The position numbers and the translations under genes are program-made. From NCBI RefSeq assembly GCF_003334335.1, contig NZ_QOWQ01000005.1: a stretch of DNA of 64,000 bases, one strand, 5' to 3'. Below are positions 152-52,175 of this stretch, piece after piece (the first letter of the stretch is position 1; each line of letters begins with the position of its first letter). The notes under the pieces were generated by a model, which saw only the letters and a list, made by a program, of their open reading frames with translations, made no database searches and was not told the origin of the DNA. The DNA comes from Escherichia coli. GTDB lineage: Bacteria > Pseudomonadota > Gammaproteobacteria > Enterobacterales > Enterobacteriaceae.

Positions 152-1543
152 TTACTGTTTTTCTGGTGGGAAAATCAGATTCAGCACGATGGCAGTAATA
201 CCGCCCGCGGCGATCCCGGAGGAGAGCAGGTTTTTCAGCCATTCAGGGGCAAACTGCAAAATCAGCGGCTGCTGAGACACGCCCAGACCAACCGCCAGCG
301 ACAGCGCGATAATCAGAATCGCCCGACGGTTCAGCGGCTCACGAGAAACGATACGCACACCGGAGGCGGCGATGGTGCCAAACATTACAAGCGTTGCGCC
401 GCCCAGAACCGGTTCTGGAATGTGTTGTACAAAACCGCTCACTGCCGGGAACAGACCCAGCACGATCAACATCAGCGCGACGACAAAACCGACATAGCGG
501 CTGGCAACACCAGTCAACTGGATCACTCCGTTGTTTTGCCCGAAGCAGGAGTTCGGGAAGGTGTTAAACACCGCCGAAACAAACGAGTTCAGGCCGTTTG
601 CCAGCACGCCACCTTTCAGGCGTTTCATGTACAGCGGACCGGACACTGGCTGTTCGGAAACGTCAGAGGTCGCCGTGATATCGCCAATGGTTTCCAGCGA
701 AGTGATCATAAAGACCAGCATCAGCGGCAGCAGCAGACTCCATTCAATGCCAAGACCGTAATAGAGCGGCGTTGGCACCATAATCAGTTCTTGCGTCATC
801 GGTTCGTTGCTTTCTGGCAACATGCCCATAAACCACGCCAGCGCATATCCGGCCGCCATCGCAATCACCAGTGAGGCCACGCGTAAGTAAGGGTTACGTT
901 GACGGTTAAGCAGGATAATTAAGGCTAAGACCACGCCTGCCAGCAGCAGATTTTTCGGTGCGCCGAAGGTGTTATCGCTCATGGCTGCGTAACCGCCGCC
1001 AATGGACGTTAACCCAACCTGAATTAGCGACAGGCCGATAATCATCACCACAACGCCAGAAACCAGCGGCGTAATAATGCGGCGCGCCAGATGCAGAACG
1101 CGGGAGATCACCATCTCGGTGCAACTTGCCAGCATCAACGTGCCGAACAAAGCCGCCATCATGGTAGGAACATCAGCACCACCGGTTTTCAGCGCGGTAC
1201 CGCCCATAATCAGCGGGGCAACAAAGTTGAAGCTGGTGCCCTGAATAGACAACAGCCCGGAGCCAACCGGACCCCAGGCCTTAATTTGAATAATCGATGC
1301 CACACCGGAGGCAAACAGCGACATACTAATAATGTGTTGCGTGTCTTGTGCCGGTAAACCCAGCGCCTGGCAGATTAATAGCGCTGGCGTGATCACCGCA
1401 ACGAACATCGCCAGCAGATGCTGACAGGCGGCAAACAGGGTTTGAGGAAGCGGCGGACGATCTTCAAGACGGTAAATCAGTTCGCTGTTTTGAGTCTGCG
1501 CAACCGGTTGCGCATTTTCTGACTCGAGGGTGGAAACAGACAT
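152..1543 (-). CDS. xanP: Xanthine permease, NCS2 family
   Basis: 466-aa ORF 152..1552; recognisable nucleobase:cation symporter-2 sequence; start trimmed to the internal Met (MSVSTLESE...) matching the ~463-aa protein I recall. Confidence 0.8.
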
Positions 1544-1822
1544 CGAAAACAATCCCGTGGTAGCAAAGCGGGCATTTTAGCTGACCGAAAGAGAAAAGCA
1601 AACGTTTGCCACATCCTCATCTAAATATTTAAATGAGATAAATGCACTTTTTTATATAACTTTTGGTATTTTTCTGCTTAAAATCCATGCCATTTGTTCA
1701 TTAACAGCTGAGAATTTGACCCAGGAAAGCATAACTCGATACCCGTCATAGTTCATGAAGTTGCCACTGCGCGATGAAGTATGACGAGTATGAAAGAGTG
1801 ATGCGGATACAAAGGAGTAACT

Positions 1823-3028
1823 ATGTTTCATCTCGATACTTTAGCAACGCTTGTTGCCGCAACGCTGACGTTGCTGCTCGGGCGTAAGTTGGTCCATTCC
1901 GTCTCCTTTTTGAAGAAATACACCATACCGGAACCTGTTGCGGGTGGTTTGTTGGTGGCGCTGGCGCTACTAGTACTGAAAAAAAGCATGGGCTGGGAAG
2001 TCAACTTTGATATGTCCCTGCGCGATCCGTTAATGCTGGCTTTCTTCGCCACCATTGGCCTGAACGCCAACATTGCCAGTTTGCGTGCCGGTGGGCGTGT
2101 GGTTGGCATCTTCTTGATTGTGGTTGTTGGTCTGTTGGTGATGCAAAATGCCATTGGCATTGGTATGGCTAGCCTGTTAGGGCTTGATCCGCTGATGGGG
2201 CTGTTGGCCGGTTCTATTACGCTTTCCGGCGGTCACGGTACGGGCGCTGCGTGGAGTAAATTGTTCATTGAACGTTATGGCTTCACCAATGCGACGGAAG
2301 TGGCGATGGCCTGTGCAACGTTCGGTCTGGTGCTGGGCGGCTTGATTGGCGGTCCGGTGGCGCGCTATCTGGTGAAACACTCCACCACGCCGAACGGTAT
2401 TCCGGATGACCAGGAAGTCCCGACGGCGTTTGAAAAGCCGGATGTGGGCCGCATGATCACCTCGTTGGTGCTGATTGAAACTATCGCGCTGATTGCTATC
2501 TGCCTGACGGTGGGGAAAATTGTTGCGCAACTTTTGGCTGGCACTGCTTTTGAACTGCCGACCTTCGTCTGTGTACTGTTTGTTGGCGTGATTCTGAGCA
2601 ACGGTCTGTCAATAATGGGCTTTTACCGCGTCTTTGAGCGTGCGGTATCCGTGCTGGGTAACGTAAGCTTGTCGTTGTTCCTGGCGATGGCGTTGATGGG
2701 GCTGAAACTGTGGGAGCTGGCTTCGCTGGCGCTGCCGATGCTGGCGATTCTGGTGGTACAGACCATCTTCATGGCGTTGTATGCCATCTTCGTTACCTGG
2801 CGCATGATGGGCAAAAACTACGATGCGGCAGTGCTGGCTGCGGGTCACTGTGGTTTTGGCCTCGGTGCAACGCCAACGGCAATCGCCAACATGCAGGCGA
2901 TCACTGAACGCTTTGGCCCGTCGCACATGGCGTTTTTGGTGGTGCCGATGGTCGGTGCGTTCTTTATCGATATCGTCAATGCGCTGGTAATTAAGTTGTA
3001 TTTGATGTTGCCGATTTTTGCCGGTTAA
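1823..3028 (+). CDS. gltS: Sodium/glutamate symporter
   Basis: 401-aa polytopic membrane ORF, AAGGAG RBS 7 nt upstream of ATG; sequence recognised as GltS. Confidence 0.88.
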   Translation: MFHLDTLATLVAATLTLLLGRKLVHSVSFLKKYTIPEPVAGGLLVALALLVLKKSMGWEVNFDMSLRDPLMLAFFATIGLNANIASLRAGGRVVGIFLIVVVGLLVMQNAIGIGMASLLGLDPLMGLLAGSITLSGGHGTGAAWSKLFIERYGFTNATEVAMACATFGLVLGGLIGGPVARYLVKHSTTPNGIPDDQEVPTAFEKPDVGRMITSLVLIETIALIAICLTVGKIVAQLLAGTAFELPTFVCVLFVGVILSNGLSIMGFYRVFERAVSVLGNVSLSLFLAMALMGLKLWELASLALPMLAILVVQTIFMALYAIFVTWRMMGKNYDAAVLAAGHCGFGLGATPTAIANMQAITERFGPSHMAFLVVPMVGAFFIDIVNALVIKLYLMLPIFAG

Positions 3029-3193
3029 CCGATGAAGCGGCGGTAGAAGTGCCGCCGCAACAAAGACAAATGCCTGATACGCTTCGCTTATCAAGCCTGC
3101 GTATTGATTCATAATTTATTGAATTTGTAGGGTGAATCGCATCCGGCAGGAAGGTAGGGTAACCTGAAATGGCGGTCTTCTCACTGCCGCCTT

Positions 3194-5275
3194 TTACGCA
3201 TTCGAGTAACGTTCTGTCTCCGGCATCCAGCGTTCTATCAAGGCTTTTGCCTGTTGTGGGTAACGTTCGTGAATATGTCGCGCCAGGCGCTGAACTTCCG
3301 GGATCATCGCCTGATCGCGCAGTAAATCCGCCACTTTAAATTCAGCATTACCCGTCTGACGCGTGCCTAACAATTCGCCAGGGCCGCGAATCTCCAGATC
3401 TTTTTGCGCAATCACAAAACCGTCGTTACTGTCGCGCAGCACTTGCAGGCGAATTTGCGCCGTTTTAGAAAGCGGCGTTTTGTAGAGCAGCACGCAGTGA
3501 GAAGCCACCGCGCCACGACCTACGCGCCCGCGCAGCTGGTGTAACTGCGCCAGACCCAGACGCTCAGGGTTTTCGATAATCATCAGGCTGGCGTTAGGCA
3601 CATCAACACCGACTTCAATAACGGTAGTGGCAACCAGCAGATGTAGCTCACCTTGTTTAAACGACGCCATCACCGCCTGTTTCTCGGCTGGTTTCATCCG
3701 CCCGTGTACCAGGCCAACATTCAATTCTGGTAGCGCCAGTTTCAACTCTTCCCAGGTAGCTTCCGCCGCCTGCGCTTCCAGTAACTCTGACTCTTCAATC
3801 AACGTACAAACCCAGTACGCCTGACGACCTTCAGTTATGCAGGCGTGGCGCACGCGGTCAATGATGTCGGTACGGCGGGTATCAGGAATAGCGACCGTAG
3901 TCACTGGCGTGCGGCCTGGCGGCAGCTCATCTATCACCGAGGTATCGAGATCGGCATACGCCGTCATTGCCAGCGTGCGGGGGATCGGCGTGGCGGTCAT
4001 GATCAACTGATGCGGATGGAAGCCCTGCTGCTGGCCTTTCTCCCACAATGCCAGACGCTGATGCACGCCAAAACGATGCTGTTCGTCGATAATCACCAGC
4101 GCCAGGCCGTTAAACTGCACCTGTTCCTGGAAGATGGCGTGTGTACCGACAATCATCTGCACCTGACCGCTGGCGATGGCTTCCTGCTGAGACAGTCGCG
4201 CTTTGCCTTTCTGCTTACCGGCGAGCCAGCCCACTTTGATACCGAGCGGTGCAAACCAGTTGCGGAAGTTATTGGCGTGCTGCTCGGCGAGTAATTCGGT
4301 TGGTGCCATCAGTGCCACCTGTTTGCCGTGGGCAATCGCACGCAGCGCGGCGAGGGCGGCGACCAGCGTTTTACCGGAACCTACATCGCCCTGTACCAGG
4401 CGCATCATCGGCACATCCAGCGCCATATCATGCTCGATCTCCGCCACTACGCGTGCCTGTGCGCCCGTTGGCTTGAACGGTAAGGCGGCGAGGAGTTTAT
4501 TTTTCAGCGTGTCATTGGCGCTCAGCGGCTGGGCATGAAAACGCTGTGCTCCGGCACGTAAGGCTAACATGCTGAGGTTGTGCGCCAGCAGTTCTTCCAG
4601 AATCAGACGACGTTGCGCCGGATGCTGCCCGGTTTCCAGATCGCTAAGCTGTAGCGTCGGTGGCGGGCGGTGCAAAGTGCGCAACGCTTCCGGTAGCGTC
4701 ATCATTCCTTGTGACAGTTCCGGCGGCAGGAGTTCTTCAATGGCGCAGGTGTCGAGCAGATCCAGCGCCTGGTCGGTTAATTTACGCAGCGTGGCCTGCT
4801 TTACGCCTTCCGTTGTTGGATAAACCGGCGTGAGCGTTTCCTGTAATTCTGGCGTGCTGAGATCGCCCTGCACGCGGTATTCCGGGTGGATCATCTCCGC
4901 ACCATATTTACCGCGCTTTGCTTCGCCATAAGCCAGTACACGGCGGCCCGTCGCCAGGCTATTTTTCATTGCCGCGCTGAAATTGAAAAAGCGCATGGTG
5001 AGGATGCCGGAACCGTCGCTGATCTGGCAGGTCATCATCCGCCGACCGCCGAAGGAGATATTGCAGTTCAGCACTTCGCCTTCCACCGTGGCATAAACGC
5101 CCGGCAGTAGTTCTCCGATGGGGTAGAGATGGGTGCGATCTTCGTAGCGCAGGGGAAGGTGTAAGAGTAAATCCTGCACGGTATGCAGGTTGATTTTCGC
5201 CAGTTTGTTACTAAGCGCTGCGCCAACGCCCGTTAGGGAACTGAGCGGGACAGTATCTAACAGGCGGCCTTTCAT
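3194..5275 (-). CDS. recG: ATP-dependent DNA helicase RecG
   Basis: ORF 3194..5308; Walker A GSGKT and DEQHRFG helicase motifs visible; start trimmed to MKGRLLDTVPL (693 aa). Confidence 0.9.
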   Translation of the reverse strand: MKGRLLDTVPLSSLTGVGAALSNKLAKINLHTVQDLLLHLPLRYEDRTHLYPIGELLPGVYATVEGEVLNCNISFGGRRMMTCQISDGSGILTMRFFNFSAAMKNSLATGRRVLAYGEAKRGKYGAEMIHPEYRVQGDLSTPELQETLTPVYPTTEGVKQATLRKLTDQALDLLDTCAIEELLPPELSQGMMTLPEALRTLHRPPPTLQLSDLETGQHPAQRRLILEELLAHNLSMLALRAGAQRFHAQPLSANDTLKNKLLAALPFKPTGAQARVVAEIEHDMALDVPMMRLVQGDVGSGKTLVAALAALRAIAHGKQVALMAPTELLAEQHANNFRNWFAPLGIKVGWLAGKQKGKARLSQQEAIASGQVQMIVGTHAIFQEQVQFNGLALVIIDEQHRFGVHQRLALWEKGQQQGFHPHQLIMTATPIPRTLAMTAYADLDTSVIDELPPGRTPVTTVAIPDTRRTDIIDRVRHACITEGRQAYWVCTLIEESELLEAQAAEATWEELKLALPELNVGLVHGRMKPAEKQAVMASFKQGELHLLVATTVIEVGVDVPNASLMIIENPERLGLAQLHQLRGRVGRGAVASHCVLLYKTPLSKTAQIRLQVLRDSNDGFVIAQKDLEIRGPGELLGTRQTGNAEFKVADLLRDQAMIPEVQRLARHIHERYPQQAKALIERWMPETERYSNA

Positions 5276-5280
5276 GGCGC

Positions 5281-5970
5281 TTACCCTGCGGCCTGCATGG
5301 TGGACCACCAGTCAGCATCAGCTTCGATCTCGCCTTGCTGATTGACGTGGGGGTAAGGCAGGCCTTTGCGTTTTGCGACTTTCGCCAGCACCGGATAGCC
5401 GCCTTCAAACAACAGGCGTTGTTGCTCTGCTTCCGGCAACATGCTGTTTTCACGCAGGTACATGCCTGCATTTTGCCGCTGACGCTGGGCTTCGTAAAGA
5501 ATGAGGGCTGAGGCAACGGAAACATTCAGCGACTGCACCATGCCGATCATCGGAATGATGATGTCCTGATCCGCCAGGGCCAATGCTTCCTGCGTGATGC
5601 CCGTTTTCTCCTGTCCCATCAAAATGCAGGTCGGGCGAGTGTAATCAATTTCGCGGAAATCGACAGCATTATCAGAAAGATGGGTTGCCAGAATCTGCAT
5701 GCCCTGGCCTTTCAGATGAGCGACGGCATCGCCAATGGTGCGGTGTGTTTTCACCTGTACCCAGCTGTTACTACCCGCCGCTGCCGAAGCCATGGTGCGC
5801 ATCCGGCTACCAGGCCAGACGGCGTGAACTTCATGTACGCCAACGGCATCTGCGGTACGAATAATCGCAGAAACGTTATGAGGTTTGTGGACCTGCTCCA
5901 TGCAGACGGTCAGGTCAGGCTGCCGCCTGGCGAGCATTTCGCAGATGCGTGCATAACGTGTTGGGTTCAT
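5281..5970 (-). CDS. trmH: tRNA (Gm18) 2'-O-methyltransferase, SPOUT family
   Basis: 229-aa ORF immediately upstream of recG in the same orientation; SpoU-type sequence. Confidence 0.85.
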   Translation of the reverse strand: MNPTRYARICEMLARRQPDLTVCMEQVHKPHNVSAIIRTADAVGVHEVHAVWPGSRMRTMASAAAGSNSWVQVKTHRTIGDAVAHLKGQGMQILATHLSDNAVDFREIDYTRPTCILMGQEKTGITQEALALADQDIIIPMIGMVQSLNVSVASALILYEAQRQRQNAGMYLRENSMLPEAEQQRLLFEGGYPVLAKVAKRKGLPYPHVNQQGEIEADADWWSTMQAAG

Positions 5971-5976
5971 AAAACA

Positions 5977-8085
5977 TTAATTTCGGTTTCGGGTGACTTT
6001 AATCACGTCTGGCATCACGCGGATTTTGCGCATGATATTCGCCAGATGCACACGGTCACGAGCGGTCAGACGAATAAAGGCGCTGTAGACGCGACCATCT
6101 TTCTCTTCCGTATTCAAACTTTGAATATTCGAGGTCGTGGTGTTAATTGCCGCCGTCAGGTTTGCCAGCGCACCCTGATGATTGAACATCTCCACCTTGA
6201 TTTCGGTGATGAATTCCTGCGCCGTCTCTTTATCCCATTCCACAGCCATAAACTTCTCTGGCTCTTTCTGGTAGCCACGGATGTTACGGCAGGATTCATG
6301 GTGGATCACCAGACCTTTACCGGGGCTGACGTGGGCGATAATCGGGTCGCCAGGAATAGGGCGGCAGCATTTCGCAAAGGTGATCAGCACGCCATCGGCA
6401 CCTTTAATTGGCAGATGTCCGTGACTTTGGGTTGCCGGTGGAATGGAGGCGTCCCCATGTTGTAGATTTTTCGCGACCACCACGCTCATTGCGTTACCAA
6501 GGCCGATTTCAGCCAGCAGATCGTCAAGCGTTGCCAGCTTCATGCGATCCAGCTCGCGCTGAATATTTTCCTGCGGGATTTCATTCAGCTTACGGCTACC
6601 ACCCAAAGCATGGTTGAGCAGACGACGGCCCAGGCTTACAGAATCATCACGCTTGAGGTTTTTCAGCAACTGACGAATTTTGGCGCGCGCTTTTGAGCTA
6701 ACGACAAAGTTCAGCCACGCGGCATTCGGGCGAGCGCCCGGTGCGGTAATGATTTCAACGGTTTGACCGCTGGTAAGCGGCTGCGACAGCGGGTAAGGCT
6801 GGCGGTCAACGCGTGCGCCCACGCAGGCATGACCGATATCGGTATGCACTGCATAAGCGAAGTCGACGGGCGTTGCACCGGCAGGCAGCTCGACAATGCG
6901 CCCTTCCGGTGTGAAAACGTAAATCTCATCCGGGAAGAGATCGGATTTAACGCTCTCGATAAATTCAAACGAACTACCGGCGCTCTGTTGCAGCTCCAGC
7001 AGGCTTTGCATCCAGCGCTGGGCGCGGATTTGTGCGGTAGTACTGGTTTCGCCGTGCTCTTTATAAGCCCAGTGCGCGGCAACACCCATCTCCGCCATCT
7101 GATCCATATCTTCGGTACGGATCTGGACCTCAACCGGCACGCCGTGCGGGCCAATCATCGAGGTGTGCAAAGACTGATAGCCGTTCGCTTTTGGAATGGC
7201 GATATAGTCTTTCACGCGGCCCGGACGCGGCTTGTACAGGCTGTGCATCTGGCCCAGCACGCGATAACAGGTGTCAGAATCATTGACGATCACGCGGAAA
7301 GCGTAGATGTCCATGATTGAGTGAAAACGCTGCTCTTTGAGCACCATTTTGCAGTAAATCGAATAAAGATGCTTTTCGCGACCACTGACGCGGCACGGTA
7401 TTCCCGCTTCCTGCAAACGCCCTTCGATTTCAGAAAGAATCTTCTGGATCATCTCTTTACGGTTGCCGCGCGCGGCTTTCACCACTTCTTTGATTACGCG
7501 ATAACGGTTGGGATACAGCGCCTCAAAACCCAGCTCTTCGAGTTCGGTTTTAATGTGGTGGATACCTAAACGGTGCGCCAGCGGGCTGTAAATTTCGAGA
7601 GTTTCACGGGCGATGCGGCGACGTTTGTCCGGGCGAAGTGAGCCCAGCGTGCGCATGTTGTGGGTACGGTCGGCAAGTTTGATGAGGATGACGCGGATAT
7701 CCTGCACCATCGCCATAATCATCTTGCGAAAGTTTTCGGCCTGCGCCTCTTTCTTATCGCGGAACTTGAGTTTATCAAGTTTCGACACCCCCTCTACCAG
7801 CTCGGCGACGCTTTTACCAAAAAGCTGTTCCATATCCTGGTAGGTGGCGGGAGTATCTTCAATCACGTCATGCAGCAGCGCCGCCATCAGCGTTTCATAG
7901 TCGAGTTTCATCTCGGCCAGAATGCAGGCAACCGCTACCGGGTGCGTGATATAGGGTTCACCGCTTGAACGTGTTTGCCCCTCGTGAGCATCACGTGCAA
8001 CGAGATACGCCTGCCGCAGACGCTTGATTTGGTCTTCCGGCAGGTAGGTTTGAATCAGTTGATTCAGGCTTTCAAACAGATACAA
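5977..8085 (-). CDS. spoT: Bifunctional (p)ppGpp synthetase/hydrolase SpoT
   Basis: 702-aa ORF with HD-domain and RelA/SpoT synthetase regions; non-ATG (TTG) start as known for spoT. Confidence 0.92.
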   Translation of the reverse strand: MYLFESLNQLIQTYLPEDQIKRLRQAYLVARDAHEGQTRSSGEPYITHPVAVACILAEMKLDYETLMAALLHDVIEDTPATYQDMEQLFGKSVAELVEGVSKLDKLKFRDKKEAQAENFRKMIMAMVQDIRVILIKLADRTHNMRTLGSLRPDKRRRIARETLEIYSPLAHRLGIHHIKTELEELGFEALYPNRYRVIKEVVKAARGNRKEMIQKILSEIEGRLQEAGIPCRVSGREKHLYSIYCKMVLKEQRFHSIMDIYAFRVIVNDSDTCYRVLGQMHSLYKPRPGRVKDYIAIPKANGYQSLHTSMIGPHGVPVEVQIRTEDMDQMAEMGVAAHWAYKEHGETSTTAQIRAQRWMQSLLELQQSAGSSFEFIESVKSDLFPDEIYVFTPEGRIVELPAGATPVDFAYAVHTDIGHACVGARVDRQPYPLSQPLTSGQTVEIITAPGARPNAAWLNFVVSSKARAKIRQLLKNLKRDDSVSLGRRLLNHALGGSRKLNEIPQENIQRELDRMKLATLDDLLAEIGLGNAMSVVVAKNLQHGDASIPPATQSHGHLPIKGADGVLITFAKCCRPIPGDPIIAHVSPGKGLVIHHESCRNIRGYQKEPEKFMAVEWDKETAQEFITEIKVEMFNHQGALANLTAAINTTTSNIQSLNTEEKDGRVYSAFIRLTARDRVHLANIMRKIRVMPDVIKVTRNRN

Positions 8086-8433: not shown

Positions 8434-11611
<3,178 letters not shown>

Positions 11612-11902
11612 GGTTCTCTCCCTAAAAATCTGTCTGGCAGGGTAGCGATTTGTGCGTATTGTCACGATTGAGATTTTTTAAGGTGAGAGGAAATTGATAA
11701 CTTGTAGTTATGTGAAATCGCTATTTTCTGTAGCGTAGATGCATTCTTCTGACTTCTTGTCTGAGAAAATGCATAAGAAAAAATAGGTTAAAATTGAGGG
11801 GTGGAAAAGAAAGGTGCAATGTTTAGCCATTGTGTTCACCGCACCTGGACTTTGGCTTACGCATCGGGTATCTCAATCAACAAAAAGAGTTTTTAGTTTC
11901 TG

Positions 11903-12727
11903 CTATTTCTTCTCTGTAATTTTTACACTGTTTTCCAACTGCTTGATGCTGACCTGCGGGGTCGGCAACTCCTCAGGCATGGTTCCGCCAAGTTCCTGAA
12001 TGGTTTGCATCACCTTGCTACCCACGTCAAAGTGTGTGGTATTAGCTTGCTGTTTTGAATTCACGCCATCCCGCTTGAGTTTTTCTTCTGTTTGGGTAGC
12101 TCGAAAGAGATTAGCCGCCAGTTCTGTTGAACCCATATGATCCAGGATCTTCTGATTCTTTTTCAGCCCCTTCCGCTGATGAATAGCTTTCTGATCTAAT
12201 CCACCATACAGCCCCTGGTAACCATGATTCTGAAATATGGCGAAATCAGTAGCTGTCGCTACCCCAGCTTGCTGTGCTGCCTCAACCAATTGTTTGTTAT
12301 GTTCTTTCAACTCATTTCTCAGAAACAGACGCTTTTCGTCTTCACGAAGTTGCTTAAATGCTTCATCGTCAGCAAGCTCCTGCCGTCGGGTCTGGATAGC
12401 AAAATAAGTCTGCCCTGCCGCAATGACCGGTTTCGCAGGGTCGCCGTTTTGTACTACCAGGTAACAGGCATAGCGGGAGAGTACGATGTCTTTTAATGCT
12501 CTTTTGGCATTTGAGCCAATTTTGACCATATCGAGGATCTCCTCGAAATGGTCATCAATTGTGTGACCACTGTTCTCACAGGCTTCTTTGGCGCGCGTTA
12601 ATACAGGTATAAAGTGACGATACTCTGAATAACCCAGTAGTTTCCCAAGTTGTCTTGCTGACCATTGTTCTGCTCCGTTTGCATTAATCAGTTTTATCTC
12701 TTCAAAAGGTTGATGATGTTCGTTCAT
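11903..12727 (-). CDS. dinD: DNA damage-inducible protein D
   Basis: ORF 11903..12739 trimmed to MNEHHQPFEEIKLINANG (274 aa); near-consensus LexA box 46 bp upstream. Confidence 0.8.
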   Translation of the reverse strand: MNEHHQPFEEIKLINANGAEQWSARQLGKLLGYSEYRHFIPVLTRAKEACENSGHTIDDHFEEILDMVKIGSNAKRALKDIVLSRYACYLVVQNGDPAKPVIAAGQTYFAIQTRRQELADDEAFKQLREDEKRLFLRNELKEHNKQLVEAAQQAGVATATDFAIFQNHGYQGLYGGLDQKAIHQRKGLKKNQKILDHMGSTELAANLFRATQTEEKLKRDGVNSKQQANTTHFDVGSKVMQTIQELGGTMPEELPTPQVSIKQLENSVKITEKK

Positions 12728-12772
12728 TGCCCACTCCATGTGATATCAATTGCAAAGAAAGTAAATCTGTAA

Positions 12773-12788
12773 CTGTATTTATATACAG
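12773..12788. promoter_or_regulatory. LexA (SOS) box CTGTATTTATATACAG upstream of dinD
   Basis: Perfect CTGT-N8-ACAG palindrome with AT-rich spacer, read directly from the sequence. Confidence 0.7.
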
Positions 12789-12882
12789 TTGTGAGTATCT
12801 CACGTTCTCAGTGTGCTGGGCAAAAAAACATCGCAAAATCTGGAGCAGGCACGAAAAACAGAATTGAAAGTTGCGGGGAAGA

Positions 12883-12914
12883 AAAATGCCGCTCTGTTTG
12901 AGTGGGCGGCATTT
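12883..12914 (-). terminator. Putative rho-independent terminator downstream of yicC
   Basis: Inverted repeat aaatgccgc...gcggcattt, followed on the minus strand by a T-run. Confidence 0.5.
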
Positions 12915-12948
12915 GTGAAGGCTGAAAAGTAAGAATTGGCGTTACGAG

Positions 12949-13812
12949 TTATTCAATATTCTGAATCTGCTCGCGCATCTGCTCAATCAACACTTTCAGC
13001 TCAATCGCGGAGTTTGTCACTTCGGCATTGATAGACTTCGACGCAAGAGTGTTCGACTCGCGGTTGAACTCCTGCATCATAAAGTCCAGACGACGACCAA
13101 CGGCTTCTTTTTTCTTCAGAATGTTGTAGGTCTCTTTGACATGCGCTTCGAGGCGGTCCAGTTCTTCGGCAACGTCAATTCGTTGTGCCAGCAGAACCAA
13201 CTCCTGCTCCAGACGGTTGTTTTCCAACTGAACCTGAGCATCTTCCAGCTTCGCGACCAAGCGTTCACGCTGCCATTGCAGGATTTCCGGCATATGGGAG
13301 CGGACTTTGACCACTTCGGCGGTGACGCCTTCCAGACGCTGCTCGATCAATGCTTTCAGTGCCTGACCTTCGGTTTCGCGCGCGACAATAAAGTCGTCCA
13401 GCGTACCATCCAGCGCCGCGAGAATTTCAGCGGCAATGGCGTCAAGATCCTGCTCCTGGGCTGCCATCACGCCCGGCCAGCGTAGAATATCAACCGGGTT
13501 GATTTCCCCTTCGTCACTCTGCATTTTTACCCAGTTCGCGGCAGTTACCAGCTGTTTAGCCAGTTTTTCGTTGAGGATCAGCTCACCTTGCGCGCTAACA
13601 TCTGGCTCATAGCGCAGGGTACATTCCACTTTACCGCGCGTCAGGCGAGAACGAATACGCTCGCGAACGACAGGTTCAAGGCTACGGAACTGCTCCGGCA
13701 GACGAAAGTAAGTTTCCAGATAACGCTGGTTTACCGAGCGCATTTCCCAGGTTGCGCTCCCCCATTCACCCTTGATTTCACGCCGGGCGTAGGCGGTCAT
13801 ACTGCGGATCAT
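12949..13812 (-). CDS. yicC: YicC-family stress-induced protein (reported endoribonuclease)
   Basis: 287-aa ORF MIRSMTAYARREIKGEWGSATWEMRSVNQRY, YicC N-terminal plus DUF1732-type C-terminal region. Confidence 0.85.
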   Translation of the reverse strand: MIRSMTAYARREIKGEWGSATWEMRSVNQRYLETYFRLPEQFRSLEPVVRERIRSRLTRGKVECTLRYEPDVSAQGELILNEKLAKQLVTAANWVKMQSDEGEINPVDILRWPGVMAAQEQDLDAIAAEILAALDGTLDDFIVARETEGQALKALIEQRLEGVTAEVVKVRSHMPEILQWQRERLVAKLEDAQVQLENNRLEQELVLLAQRIDVAEELDRLEAHVKETYNILKKKEAVGRRLDFMMQEFNRESNTLASKSINAEVTNSAIELKVLIEQMREQIQNIE

Positions 13813-13938
13813 AGACGTTCCTGTTTATAAAAGGAGAGGTGGAAGGATTATAGCCATCGATGCCTTGTCAGGATAGGAATAACCGCCGGAAGTCCGTATA
13901 ATGCGCAGCCACATTTGTTTCAAGCCGGAGATTTCAAT

Positions 13939-14655
13939 ATGCGTCCAGCAGGCCGTAGCAATAATCAGGTGCGTCCCGTTACCCTGACTCGTAACTATAC
14001 AAAACATGCAGAAGGCTCGGTGCTGGTCGAATTTGGCGATACCAAAGTGTTGTGTACCGCCTCTATTGAAGAAGGCGTGCCGCGCTTCCTGAAAGGTCAG
14101 GGCCAGGGCTGGATCACCGCAGAGTACGGCATGCTGCCACGTTCTACCCACACCCGTAACGCTCGTGAAGCGGCGAAAGGTAAGCAGGGTGGACGCACAA
14201 TGGAAATCCAGCGTCTGATCGCCCGTGCGCTTCGCGCGGCAGTAGATTTGAAAGCGCTGGGTGAGTTCACCATTACGCTGGACTGCGACGTGCTTCAGGC
14301 TGATGGTGGCACGCGTACCGCTTCGATTACGGGTGCCTGTGTGGCGCTGGCAGATGCGCTACAGAAGCTGGTGGAAAACGGCAAGCTGAAAACCAACCCG
14401 ATGAAAGGGATGGTAGCCGCGGTTTCTGTCGGGATTGTGAACGGCGAAGCGGTTTGCGATCTGGAATACGTTGAAGACTCTGCCGCAGAGACCGACATGA
14501 ACGTAGTGATGACCGAAGACGGGCGCATCATTGAAGTGCAGGGGACGGCAGAAGGCGAGCCGTTCACCCATGAAGAGCTACTCACCTTGTTGGCGCTGGC
14601 CCGAGGGGGAATCGAATCCATTGTAGCGACGCAGAAGGCGGCGCTGGCAAACTGA
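13939..14655 (+). CDS. rph: Ribonuclease PH (intact 238-aa form)
   Basis: ORF 13915..14655 trimmed to [20 protein letters not shown]; C-terminus ...[13 protein letters not shown] is full length. Confidence 0.9.
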
Positions 14656-21948: not shown

Positions 21949-22354
21949 AATAAATAGCTGACTTATGGATGTGCTGGGGATTCTATGTATTTAGCACCGG
22001 GTTTGCCATTACTTTTCCTTTTTTTGACTTAATTAGCCTCTGTTTGAGCTGATCTGCCGCTAGATCTTCATTTTTTTTGTATTTTTATGCGATTCATTGA
22101 ATTTCAGCCAGGATTGCAGCTTTACATCGACAATATCTGGATTCTCGAGTATGCAAAATTTTATCTCTATGATTTTTATAATTAAAACATATTTTGTGTA
22201 TAAAAATCATTCGGGTCGGATTGCTGCGAAAGAAATGATACACTAGCGCGTCAAAGTAAGTGCGTTATCAGTATTCGGGTAGCTGTTGAGCCTGGGGCGG
22301 TAGCGTGCTTTTTTCTGCTTAACTTAACCAGACAATCACACAAAAGAGTCGCTA
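21949..22354. promoter_or_regulatory. Divergent waaA / waaQ control region (AT-rich, long waaQ leader)
   Basis: 406-bp AT-rich intergenic region between divergent operons; contains the ops element listed separately. Confidence 0.55.
22296..22307 (+). promoter_or_regulatory. ops element GGCGGTAGCGTG (RfaH recruitment site, JUMPstart core)
   Basis: Exact GGCGGTAG octamer followed by CGTG, about 50 nt upstream of the waaQ start on the coding strand. Confidence 0.75.
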
Positions 22355-49747: not shown

Positions 49748-50520
49748 GCGTTTTTCTCCCTCGAATGCTCATTATGCTCACCGGGCAGGCGGGTAATCCG
49801 TGCGTGGCGAGCCTGATCTTCATCGAATCGTTTCATGGTGGTGTGAACAAAACTAAGGTGCGCCATCATTGCTTTACGCGCCCCGTCAGCATCACCGGCA
49901 AAAATGGCGTCAATGACAGCCTGATGTTGTTCGGTCAGTTGTGAAAAAACCGGTGGCACCAGATACATCCGCTGACGGCTATGCTTCACTGAGGATTGCA
50001 GGACATCGAAGAAACCGCGCATGGTTTGCAGCAGCACGATGTTATGTGAGGCTTCGGCAATCGCCAGATGAAAACGAACGTCCGCTTGTGAGGCGATATC
50101 CGGGTCTTCACTTAGCGTTGCTTCAAAGCAAAGCTGAATCTTTTCTTTGTCGCCAGGTGTGGCGCGCATTGCCGCATGCCATGCGGTGCTGGCTTCAATG
50201 GCGTAGCGGGCTTCCAGAATATCGAAACTGTAATCCGGATCATCGGCCATCAGTGTTTTTAGCGGCTGGACGATGTTTTGCTCCGACCATGTGTCATGAC
50301 GCCAGCGAATAAACGTCCCGCCGCCGCGTCGACTGAGCAGCACGCCTTCACTCACCAGTTTTGCCAGCGCCTCGCGCAGTGAATTACGTGATACGCCGAG
50401 TTGCATCGCCAGTTGGCGCTCAGCGGGCAACTTCATGCCCGCTTCCAGGTTTTTTTCATCAATCAGCGCCCGCACACGATCGGCAACCTCGTCTGACAGG
50501 CGTCTGGGTAAAACAATCAT
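49744..50520 (-). CDS. lldR: L-lactate operon regulator (GntR/FadR family)
   Basis: ORF 49744..50535 trimmed to [22 protein letters not shown] (258 aa). Confidence 0.88.
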
Positions 50521-52175
50521 TAAGGAATCATCCACGTTAAGACATAAGCCTGAAGCGTGGTGATCACGCCCACTATACAGGTGAAGATCAGGCTGTGTTT
50601 GACAGTAAAGCGGAACAAATCAGACTCTTTGCCCACCAGGCCTACCGCCGCACAGGCGATAGCGATAGATTGCGGGGAGATCATCTTACCGGTGACGCCA
50701 CCGGTGGTATTGGCGGCAACCAGCAACAGATCAGAGACGCCAATTTGTTGTGCTGCGGTGGCTTGCAGCGCGGCGAACAGGGCGTTAGATGAGGTATCCG
50801 ACCCGGTCAGGAATACCCCCAGCCAGCCGAGGAACGGCGAGAAGAAGGTGAATGCATGACCGGTGTGCGCCAGTGCCAGCGCCAGTGTTGATGACAGTCC
50901 GGAATAGTTCGAAATAAAGGCGAATGCCAGCACCATACCGATGGAGTAGATGGGCAGAGCCAGTTCTTTCAGCGTGCTGCCGAAGGTGCTGATAGCGTCA
51001 GACGGTTTCATCTTCAGCCAGACAATCGAGAGCAGTGCAGCAAACAGAATGGCGGTGCCGGTGGCAGAGAACCAGTCAAACTTAAACACGGCGGCATAGG
51101 CTGTAGCCTCGCTGACCACTGGCGGCATACGGGCAACCAGTTTATCGAGGTACGGCACCGGAATATTGATCACCCACTCATACAGCGCGCCACCCGATGC
51201 GAACAGGGCTTTAAACGGCGGGATACTCCACAGTGTTACGGTAGCTGTCAGGAACAGGAACGGTGTCCAGGCACGTAACACCTGACCCGCAGTGTAACCG
51301 GTGTGGGCCAGCGTCATATCAACCTGTGACGCCCCCAAATCACCAAAACGGAATACACGCACTGGCTGCCAGCGTTTGAGGAACAGCGTCAGGCAGAGCA
51401 GTGATACCAGCGAAGAGATAATGTCCGGCAGCTCCGGCCCAATGAAGTTAGAGCTAAGGTACTGAGCGATGGCAAACGAGCCGCCCGCAACCACGACCGC
51501 AGGCCACGTCTCTTTGATACCGCGCCAGCCGTCCATAATCGCCATGATCCAGAACAGCACGATAATGGTCATAAACGGTAGCTGCCGCCCCACCATCTGA
51601 CCAATCTCAAAGCTGTCGATACCTGTTACCTGTCCGGCAACCAGGATTGGAATGCCCATCGCACCAAATGCCACTGGCGCGGTGTTAACAATCAGGCACA
51701 GCCCGGCGGCGTACAGCGGTTTAAAACCCAGGCCGACCAGCAATGCGGCGGTAATTGCTACCGGTGCGCCAAAGCCTGCGGCTCCTTCAAGGAACGCGCC
51801 GAAACAGAAACCGACGATCAGCATTTGCAGACGCTGGTCAGGGGTTATCGAAAGAATAGACGAGCGAATGATGTCAAACTGCCCGGTTTTCACCGAGATC
51901 TTATAGACGAACACCGCTGCAATAATGATCCACGCGATGGGCCACAACCCGTAGAAGAAACCATAAACCACCGAGGCCAGCGCGTTAGCGACCGGCATTT
52001 TATAGAACAGCAAAGCCACGGCAAGGGCGATTGCCACCGTCCACGAGGCGGCGACGTATCCTTTCAGTTTGAGCTTAATCAGCGCAAAGAAGAAAAACAG
52101 GATGGGAAGCGATGCTATCAGACTGGAAAGCCAGATATTCCCGGCGGGATCGTAGTTTTGTTGCCAGAGATTCAT
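50520..52175 (-). CDS. lldP: L-lactate permease
   Basis: ORF 50520..52202 trimmed to [15 protein letters not shown] (551 aa). Confidence 0.88.

Follow-up and report, generated by a model that had tools for sequence, protein, structure and literature searches.

The dinD locus

The window analysed here is a stretch of 64,000 nucleotides of Escherichia coli DNA (contig NZ_QOWQ01000005.1), and our subject is the gene dinD on its minus strand, together with the LexA operator in front of it and the protein that it encodes. That the locus is E. coli dinD and is regulated by LexA is practically certain. The encoded protein matched the DinD equivalog model (NCBIfam NF008573/PRK11525) with 483.5 bits against a cut-off of 242, residues 1-274 being covered, and was 99% identical to a protein cluster named 'DNA damage-inducible protein D'. 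The name dinD is carried at the matching open reading frame (ORF) both by 100%-identical RefSeq records and by that of K-12. The window segment matched E. coli strain CFSAN061772 at 100% identity and K-12 at 98.4%, with 99.5% nucleotide identity to K-12 within the dinD coding sequence (CDS). The genes of the region are arranged in the order gmk, ligB, yicG, dinD, yicC, rph, pyrE, slmA. No difference of substance was found from the dinD gene of E. coli K-12 (pcsA, orfY), an LexA-regulated SOS gene which is alike in gene, yicG-dinD-yicC locus and operator. Textbooks have covered the gene and its LexA box since the 1980s and 1990s. The initial annotation, which had described an SOS-regulated dinD with a near-consensus LexA box, therefore contains as written nothing new. 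The features of the gene and its control region are as follows.

11903-12727, minus strand: dinD CDS, K-12-type allele, 274 amino acids plus stop (ORF list, NCBIfam NF008573, RefSeq annotation)
12734-12737, minus strand: Shine-Dalgarno sequence GGAG, 6 nt upstream of the ATG at 12727 (direct reading of the sequence)
12771-12790, minus strand: LexA operator (SOS box), 20-mer AACTGTATATAAATACAGTT (weight matrix, consensus match, published box)
12794-12823, minus strand: best sigma-70 promoter candidate, -35 TTGCCC (12818-12823), 18-nt spacer, -10 GATACT (12794-12799) (hand scan, 8/12 matches)
12882-12914, minus strand: likely intrinsic terminator of yicC, stem TGCCGC/GCGGCA, loop of 13-14 nt, T-run (read by eye)

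An alternative in-frame ATG at 12739 lacks a Shine-Dalgarno sequence. Because GGAG precedes only the ATG at 12727, the start giving 274 amino acids is favoured.

The LexA operator and the dinD promoter

The core of the operator is the 16-bp palindrome CTGTATTTATATACAG at 12773-12788. Between the box and the ATG lie 45 nt, which corresponds to the offset of 46 given in the initial annotation. Such a palindrome could be a chance AT-rich inverted repeat devoid of any regulatory role, with dinD expressed independently of DNA damage. The bare CTGTN8ACAG pattern would allow this, as it was found once where 0.62 copies are expected per window and is not significant by itself, and a standard scan gave no consensus promoter. 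The full 20-mer, however, is far beyond chance. It matches the 20-nt LexA consensus (TACTG(TA)5CAGTA) at 17/20 positions, and a match of this quality arose in 0/100 shuffles. We scored the window with a symmetrised position weight matrix (PWM) derived from 14 other boxes listed in PMC3009722, the dinD box being left out. The dinD operator reached 26.4 bits, compared with 14.7-28.2 for the training sites and 11.7 for the runner-up in the 64-kb window.

The operator is also strongly conserved. The 66 nt around the box were 100% identical in 3,374 E. coli genomes, strains with the other dinD allele (see below) included. In the most divergent promoter variant examined, 5/10 bases directly downstream of the box were changed. 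The box itself had a single change, located in the spacer, with CTGT and ACAG both kept. Preservation of the half-sites where neighbouring bases change again speaks against a chance repeat. Moreover, AACTGTATATAAATACAGTT is the published, experimentally supported dinD operator, and the dinD box listed in PMC3009722, ACAACTGTATATAAATACAGTTACA, is the same as that of the window. In that study dinD was induced by UV, and LexA dependence was demonstrated by reverse-transcription quantitative PCR in lexA(Def) and lexA3(Ind-) strains; dinD also stands among the genes with a known SOS box in Table 1 of PMC6590174. These reports uphold the earlier statement that dinD is a genuine SOS gene and not a novel element. 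The published expression data from lexA mutants refute the chance reading, the probability of which is negligible.

The dinD operator abuts the best -10 candidate, and both candidate promoter hexamers were invariant across four divergent E. coli promoters. Given this promoter, the transcription start would fall at the upstream edge of the operator. A standard consensus scan for promoters and terminators of positions 11550-13000 reported nothing, the candidate promoter being below threshold. The terminator scan missed the yicC hairpin because its loop exceeds 8 nt. The hairpin was kept in four E. coli versions of the region and probably terminates yicC, separating dinD from yicC transcription. 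With yicC ended by a hairpin and T-run, dinD would therefore have a promoter of its own. Regulation as such is established by the published work: a LexA dimer bound to AACTGTATATAAATACAGTT, at or just downstream of what is probably a weak promoter, holds dinD off. Upon DNA damage, filaments of RecA on single-stranded DNA bring about LexA self-cleavage and dinD is transcribed, probably from a separate promoter located beyond the yicC terminator.

An accessory cassette with two Bro-N alleles

The gene is accessory in E. coli and exists there as two alleles, which differ in the Bro-N domain that forms the N-terminal part of the protein. Two further features were defined by comparison with other strains.

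11786-12948, no strand: dinD cassette, present here; dinD-less E. coli such as strain NR379 has ~77 unrelated bp in its place (blastn)
12468-12708, minus strand: allelic replacement block, CDS nt ~20-260 (window against a genome with the other allele, 30-nt steps)

A blastn census found the dinD CDS in 4,714 of 5,426 complete E. coli genomes (87%); it was absent from 13%. In strain NR379 yicG adjoins yicC with no dinD between them, and when the intergenic region of this strain was compared with the window by blastn, homology ended at ~11785 and restarted at 12949. The cassette thus delimited has a length of ~1.16 kb and a GC content of 44.5%, against 53% in the flanking genes. The AT-rich flanks of dinD noticed earlier were confirmed by composition (38.8% and 42.1% GC in the intergenic regions, 45.5% in dinD, 53% in yicG and yicC), and the flanks are low in GC because dinD is an accessory cassette.

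Identity to the window gene fell into two bands, one of ≥95% (1,956 genomes) and one of 80-90% (2,754 genomes); the window and K-12 carry the minority allele. The difference is concentrated in the allelic block, which has sharp boundaries and ~50-67% nucleotide identity between alleles. Outside it, promoter and rest of the gene were 87-100%, mostly 93-100%, identical. At the protein level, the alleles shared 51% identity over residues 8-87 and 96% over residues 96-255. This variable block encodes the core of Bro-N.

In E. coli GCA_016678035.1, a P4-like island of ~6 kb lies between yicC and the dinD promoter (1500-8000 of the retrieved locus). It encodes an integrase, an AlpA-type helix-turn-helix protein, a zinc-ribbon primase, a DUF5906/Pox_D5 helicase and small ORFs. 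A ~20-bp direct repeat of the yicC 3' end (CAGATTCAxxATTGAGTA) borders the island on either side, and the yicC 3' end is therefore an integration site.

DinD homologues and type I restriction-modification operons

The DinD family is very large, with at least 8,000 candidates, all scored ones at E ≤ 1e-5, and its conservation is unusually high. For comparison of gene neighbourhoods we scanned one genome per species and used the 80 best loci, which were 61-81% identical to E. coli DinD. These belonged to Gamma-, Beta-, Delta- and Epsilonproteobacteria, Chlamydiae, Spirochaetes, Bacteroidales, Chlorobi, Synergistetes, Omnitrophota and one Methanolobus archaeon. Clustering of ORFs revealed three recurrent neighbours. 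The first is HsdM, above the NCBIfam curated cut-off; the other two were named HsdS and HsdR on the basis of sub-threshold matches to models of the type I S-subunit and R-subunit (EcoAI-type HsdR). Restriction-modification (R-M) context was counted on the 74 loci with a called DinD ORF over a range of 7 kb. R-M genes were present within this range in 44/74 loci, with hsdM, hsdS or hsdR directly adjacent in 41/74, and all R-M genes (129/129) shared the strand of the dinD homologue. The commonest position of the homologue was between hsdM and hsdS/hsdR. Some type I R-M loci held two DinD-like genes, the second being 33-37% identical to E. coli DinD, and some homologues of 398-435 residues had a tandem duplication of Bro-N.

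With the defence-system models of PADLOC, DinD matched PDC-S13 (PDLC04919, E 8e-120), PDC-S05 and the N-terminal part of a DinD-HsdS fusion model. The adjacency to R-M genes that belongs to PDC-S13 is lacking for dinD in the window, where the neighbours are yicG and yicC and not an R-M or defence gene. In Bibersteinia, a dinD-hsdS fusion that occurs naturally works as an active specificity subunit (PMC4996451). Homologues of dinD were also found in streptococcal phage-like islands and satellite phages. A DinD 99.3% identical to that of E. coli is encoded at 50367-51188 of MG065686.1, an unannotated 174-kb record named 'Campylobacter phage A18a'; this is most likely E. coli DNA in the assembly and not a phage gene.

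These contexts bring up the possibility that DinD serves in conflicts with phages and other mobile DNA, either as an orphan type I R-M defence accessory of the PDC-S13 kind or as a phage-type Bro-N regulator or antirepressor. Its targets would then be restricted or foreign DNA ends or a phage protein, and LexA would couple DinD to prophage induction or restriction damage. The PADLOC matches, the 41/74 loci adjoining hsdM/S/R on the same strand, the active fusion in Bibersteinia and the occurrence in phage-like islands and satellite phages all agree with such a role. So do the resemblance of the Bro-N part to phage antirepressor N-termini, the fold matches in BFVD, which are phage regulatory or antirepressor proteins, the two sharply divergent Bro-N alleles in E. 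coli and the P4-like island beside dinD in some strains. On the other hand, the PDC systems are untested candidates, derived from genes that lie inside loci for type I R-M, BREX or DISARM (Payne et al. 2024, preprint), and the dinD gene of the window is not beside an R-M or defence gene. The main text of the Payne preprint names neither DinD nor Bro-N, DefensePredictor does not mention DinD, and our literature search yielded no paper naming PDC-S13 and none tying DinD to a measured defence phenotype. Classification as an antirepressor was rejected, as a Pfam search at E ≤ 10 gave no match to the KilAC/ANT domain (PF03374). Finally, defence proteins usually evolve fast, while the C-terminal domain of DinD is ~77% identical across phyla. 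Altogether we consider a role in phage conflict rather doubtful as the function of E. coli DinD, bearing in mind that it partly overlaps the explanation preferred below.

LexA control proved to be rare in the family. An exact CTGTN8ACAG within 300 nt upstream was present in 1/80 loci, and a PWM-grade LexA site upstream of 2/71 homologues, at a control rate of 0.24% per 260-nt chunk. The two PWM-grade boxes are CACTGTAAAAATATCCAGTA at -48 in Citrobacter werkmanii (21.9 bits) and ACCTGTATAAAAACACAGTA at -69 in Paraburkholderia madseniana (20.7 bits). Both copies are orphans in unrelated contexts, where hsdM, hsdS and hsdR were missing from the genes called within 7 kb; this suggests that they were recruited to SOS control independently. 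The C. werkmanii gene appears to be split into ORFs of 104 and 141 amino acids. In Morganella, Providencia and Pseudocitrobacter, dinD directly follows yicC without a LexA box. Given these three genera and the low counts of exact (1/80) and PWM-grade (2/71) boxes, LexA control was rejected as an ancestral trait of the family. Comparison of the loci shows E. coli dinD to be an orphan of a horizontally mobile family that usually resides inside type I R-M operons, and LexA control to be a lineage-specific trait that was added in the E. coli lineage. The name 'DNA damage-inducible' fits E. coli and perhaps a few other lineages; as a name for the whole family it is unjustified because the LexA box is rare among homologues.

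The C-terminal domain of DinD is related to that of DdrC

A domain search of DinD identified an N-terminal Bro-N domain and a C-terminal domain homologous to that of DdrC from Deinococcus.

12413-12700, minus strand: N-terminal Bro-N domain region, amino acids 10-105, a module of the winged-helix type (Pfam PF02498)
11990-12343, minus strand: conserved C-terminal helical domain region, amino acids 129-246, homologous to the C-terminal DNA-binding domain of DdrC

Bro-N (PF02498) matched residues 10-105 with an i-Evalue of 4.6e-7, and the domain is precomputed for all listed homologues. An AlphaFold2 model calculated from an alignment of 71 sequences had a mean predicted local distance difference test score of 85.6 and combined a winged-helix-like alpha/beta domain at the N-terminus with long helices behind it. 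When the model was compared with solved structures by Foldseek, six chains of Deinococcus radiodurans DdrC were matched with a probability of 0.99-1.00 over ~240 columns and both domains; no other significant match was obtained among the solved structures. A sequence search of the PDB with a DinD profile gave no meaningful match, and NCBIfam at E ≤ 10 offered no DdrC-related family for DinD or its paralogues. Both DinD and DdrC matched Dachshund.

The DdrC sequence was taken from a supplementary figure and verified against the PDB chains. A DdrC profile searched against 1.84 billion representative proteins retrieved 289 clusters at E ≤ 0.001 in public genomes and metagenomes, so that DdrC extends beyond Deinococcus. 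The DinD hidden Markov model (HMM) also matched, on its C-terminal domain and with up to 49 bits, 66 of the 150 best clusters, and several shared clusters were significant to both families after correction for the size of the whole library. With the DdrC alignment enlarged in this way, hhalign aligned DinD 129-246 with DdrC 112-224 at 97.6% probability (E 3.5e-12). In the reverse direction, the HMM of the enlarged DdrC alignment matched the DinD of the window with 43.4 bits. The two proteins have a motif in common, which reads KGLKK...ILDHMGSTEL in DinD and RGVKxTRDGLxxxEL in DdrC. Homology of the DinD C-terminal domain to that of DdrC is thus very probable. Both papers on the DdrC structure report no homologues outside Deinococcus, and our literature search found no paper linking DdrC and DinD.

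In DdrC, the C-terminal domain is the core element for binding of double-stranded DNA and for dimerization, and the N-terminal domain senses nicks (PMC11347143). As an asymmetric homodimer, DdrC binds nicks or double-strand breaks in pairs and makes DNA more compact (PMC11347143). Two of the residues that contact DNA in the C-terminal domain of DdrC, R128 and K170 (PMC11347143), align with the near-invariant K145 and K189 of DinD. Among 50 members of DdrC-like clusters examined, some carried Bro-N, KilA-N, Rha or T5orf172 modules at the N-terminus. For DdrC itself, no member of the family had a precomputed Pfam domain, and Bro-N was not matched in the one close homologue that we scanned.

A possible mechanism of DinD action

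The initial annotation had stated that DinD has no established enzymatic function. This is true, but it passes over a published activity of another kind: DinD reportedly inhibits RecA-mediated strand exchange in vitro by way of postsynaptic RecA filaments, an observation for which several papers cite Uranga et al. 2011. We propose that DinD would act as a DdrC-like dimer, its C-terminal domains binding duplex DNA and its Bro-N domain recognising, where DNA is damaged, either a structure of the DNA or a partner. DinD would thereby compete RecA off duplex, i.e. postsynaptic, DNA. If DinD occupied the duplex at repair intermediates, the inhibition reported for postsynaptic, duplex-bound RecA filaments would be accounted for. 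A LexA-controlled, DdrC-like protein that binds duplexes or breaks and displaces RecA from duplex DNA is the best explanation of the data as a whole, and we assign it a probability of about 0.6. For the narrower claim that DdrC-like DNA binding is the working mechanism of DinD in E. coli, we regard the odds as even.

Several points weigh against this explanation. At the level of control, the candidate promoter has just 8/12 matches to the consensus and the standard scan yielded none. When bridging sequences were omitted, direct hhalign comparison of DinD and DdrC was weak, with E 0.066 for a single DdrC and 0.018 for a Deinococcus-only profile. The N-terminal half of DinD and the lesion-sensing winged-helix domain of DdrC (R14, R81) gave an hhalign E of 0.17, which is not significant. 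Only two of the four DdrC C-terminal contact residues are basic in DinD, since R142 aligns with T160 and R164 with H183. The C-terminal domain of DinD has a mean pairwise identity of 77% across phyla, which is unusual for a non-specific DNA binder, and this extreme conservation hints at a more constrained partner or activity. Deletion of dinD is without a strong reported phenotype (PMC2577331). DinD might, moreover, act on RecA by protein contact alone.

Taken further, this last point would make DinD a dedicated anti-recombinase which touches RecA directly in the manner of RecX and caps or dismantles filaments once strand exchange has yielded duplex. DNA binding would then be irrelevant and the likeness to DdrC a mere scaffold. 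The sole published biochemical activity does concern RecA filaments. In addition, the cold sensitivity of pcsA68 (dinD68) is recA-dependent (PMC2577331), and a very highly conserved C-terminal domain would suit a conserved partner such as RecA. Nevertheless, Pfam and fold searches revealed no similarity in sequence or fold to RecX, DinI or other RecA modulators, the family lives mostly in type I R-M operons and extends to an archaeon with RadA in place of RecA, and the homologous domain in DdrC is the core DNA-binding element. Direct action on RecA therefore appears distinctly unlikely, and the DdrC-like duplex-binding protein remains our preferred reading.

This preferred reading can be extended, tentatively and at somewhat less than even odds, to a single widespread superfamily of DinD and DdrC that would handle DNA ends and nicks and combine a swappable winged-helix sensor (Bro-N, KilA-N or Rha) with a conserved duplex-binding helical domain. 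The DinD branch may be at home in type I R-M operons and deal with restriction-made double-strand breaks; the bridging DdrC-like proteins carry phage-regulator N-terminal modules instead. As part of the same tentative proposal, orphans would have been wired independently into damage regulons, coming under LexA in E. coli, as it seems also in Citrobacter and Paraburkholderia, and under DdrO/RDRM in Deinococcus. If the superfamily exists in this form, E. coli DinD would be a break sensor or bridger whose 'inhibition' of RecA is a by-product of duplex occupancy, and DdrC would not be a Deinococcus invention.

Implications

The homology to DdrC provides a concrete handle on a gene whose function has been ill-defined for some four decades. 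For DdrC there are already structures, known DNA-contact residues and assays of nick and break binding, and such experiments are directly transferable to DinD. Conversely, our data suggest that DdrC, called unique to Deinococcus in the structural papers, belongs to a large family of which it forms one branch. Thousands of homologues now bear the name 'DNA damage-inducible protein D'; most of them are without a LexA site and reside in R-M operons. At the level of annotation, the accessory cassette, the two Bro-N alleles, the lineage-specific LexA control, the embedding in R-M operons and the DdrC-homologous C-terminal domain are new. These results make the function of DinD testable with existing DdrC assays.

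Other features of the window

One more feature lies within dinD itself.

11936-11951, plus strand: 16-nt CAACTGCTTGATGCTG in the dinD 3' end, the reported complementarity between tisAB RNA and dinD mRNA (exact match located; PMC2577331)

The 16-nt complementarity between tisAB RNA and dinD mRNA was described in PMC2577331, where tisAB-dependent cleavage of dinD mRNA was not seen. At the dinD locus, Rfam gave no RNA family even at E ≤ 1. The sole Rfam match above its gathering score in the window was a JUMPstart RNA element (RF01707, 53.1 bits) at 22269-22307 on the plus strand. The rph gene (13915-14655, plus strand) is an intact ORF in the window, whereas the K-12 record marks it as frameshifted; the strain sequenced here is therefore an E. 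coli other than K-12. The genes ligB (plus strand) and yicG (minus strand) are convergent, and their 3' ends share the 4 nt at 10994-10997.

Comparison with known systems

Among the known systems close to DinD is DdrC from D. radiodurans (DR_0003/A2G07_003810; PDB 7qvb, 7udi, 8u0g), which is induced by damage and both senses and bridges nicks and breaks in DNA. The N-terminal domain of DdrC is not detectably similar in sequence to that of DinD, and the Bro-N domain recognisable in DinD was not detected in DdrC. Control is by DdrO/RDRM for DdrC and by LexA for DinD. DdrC forms an asymmetric, domain-swapped dimer that pairs nicks or double-strand breaks.

With the candidate system PDC-S13 of PADLOC, DinD shares a strong HMM match, and most of its relatives share the placement from hsdM to hsdS/hsdR on the same strand. 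The copy in the window differs as an orphan devoid of R-M neighbours which has acquired a LexA operator.

Temperate phages have LexA-controlled antirepressors. The Bro-N domain of DinD was 41-48% identical to the N-termini of actinophage 'antirepressors', the whole DinD fold matched phage 'regulatory' and 'antirepressor' proteins in BFVD, and fusions of DdrC-like C-terminal domains with Bro-N, KilA-N and Rha modules, such as those of phage regulators, also occur. DinD differs from the phage antirepressors in that KilAC/ANT is missing and there is no prophage context in the window.

RecX and DinI are, like DinD, SOS-induced and reported to limit the function of RecA filaments. No relationship of DinD to them in sequence or fold was found, there being no Pfam or NCBIfam match and neither protein being among the fold-search matches. 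DinD, for its part, is said to act on postsynaptic, duplex-bound filaments.

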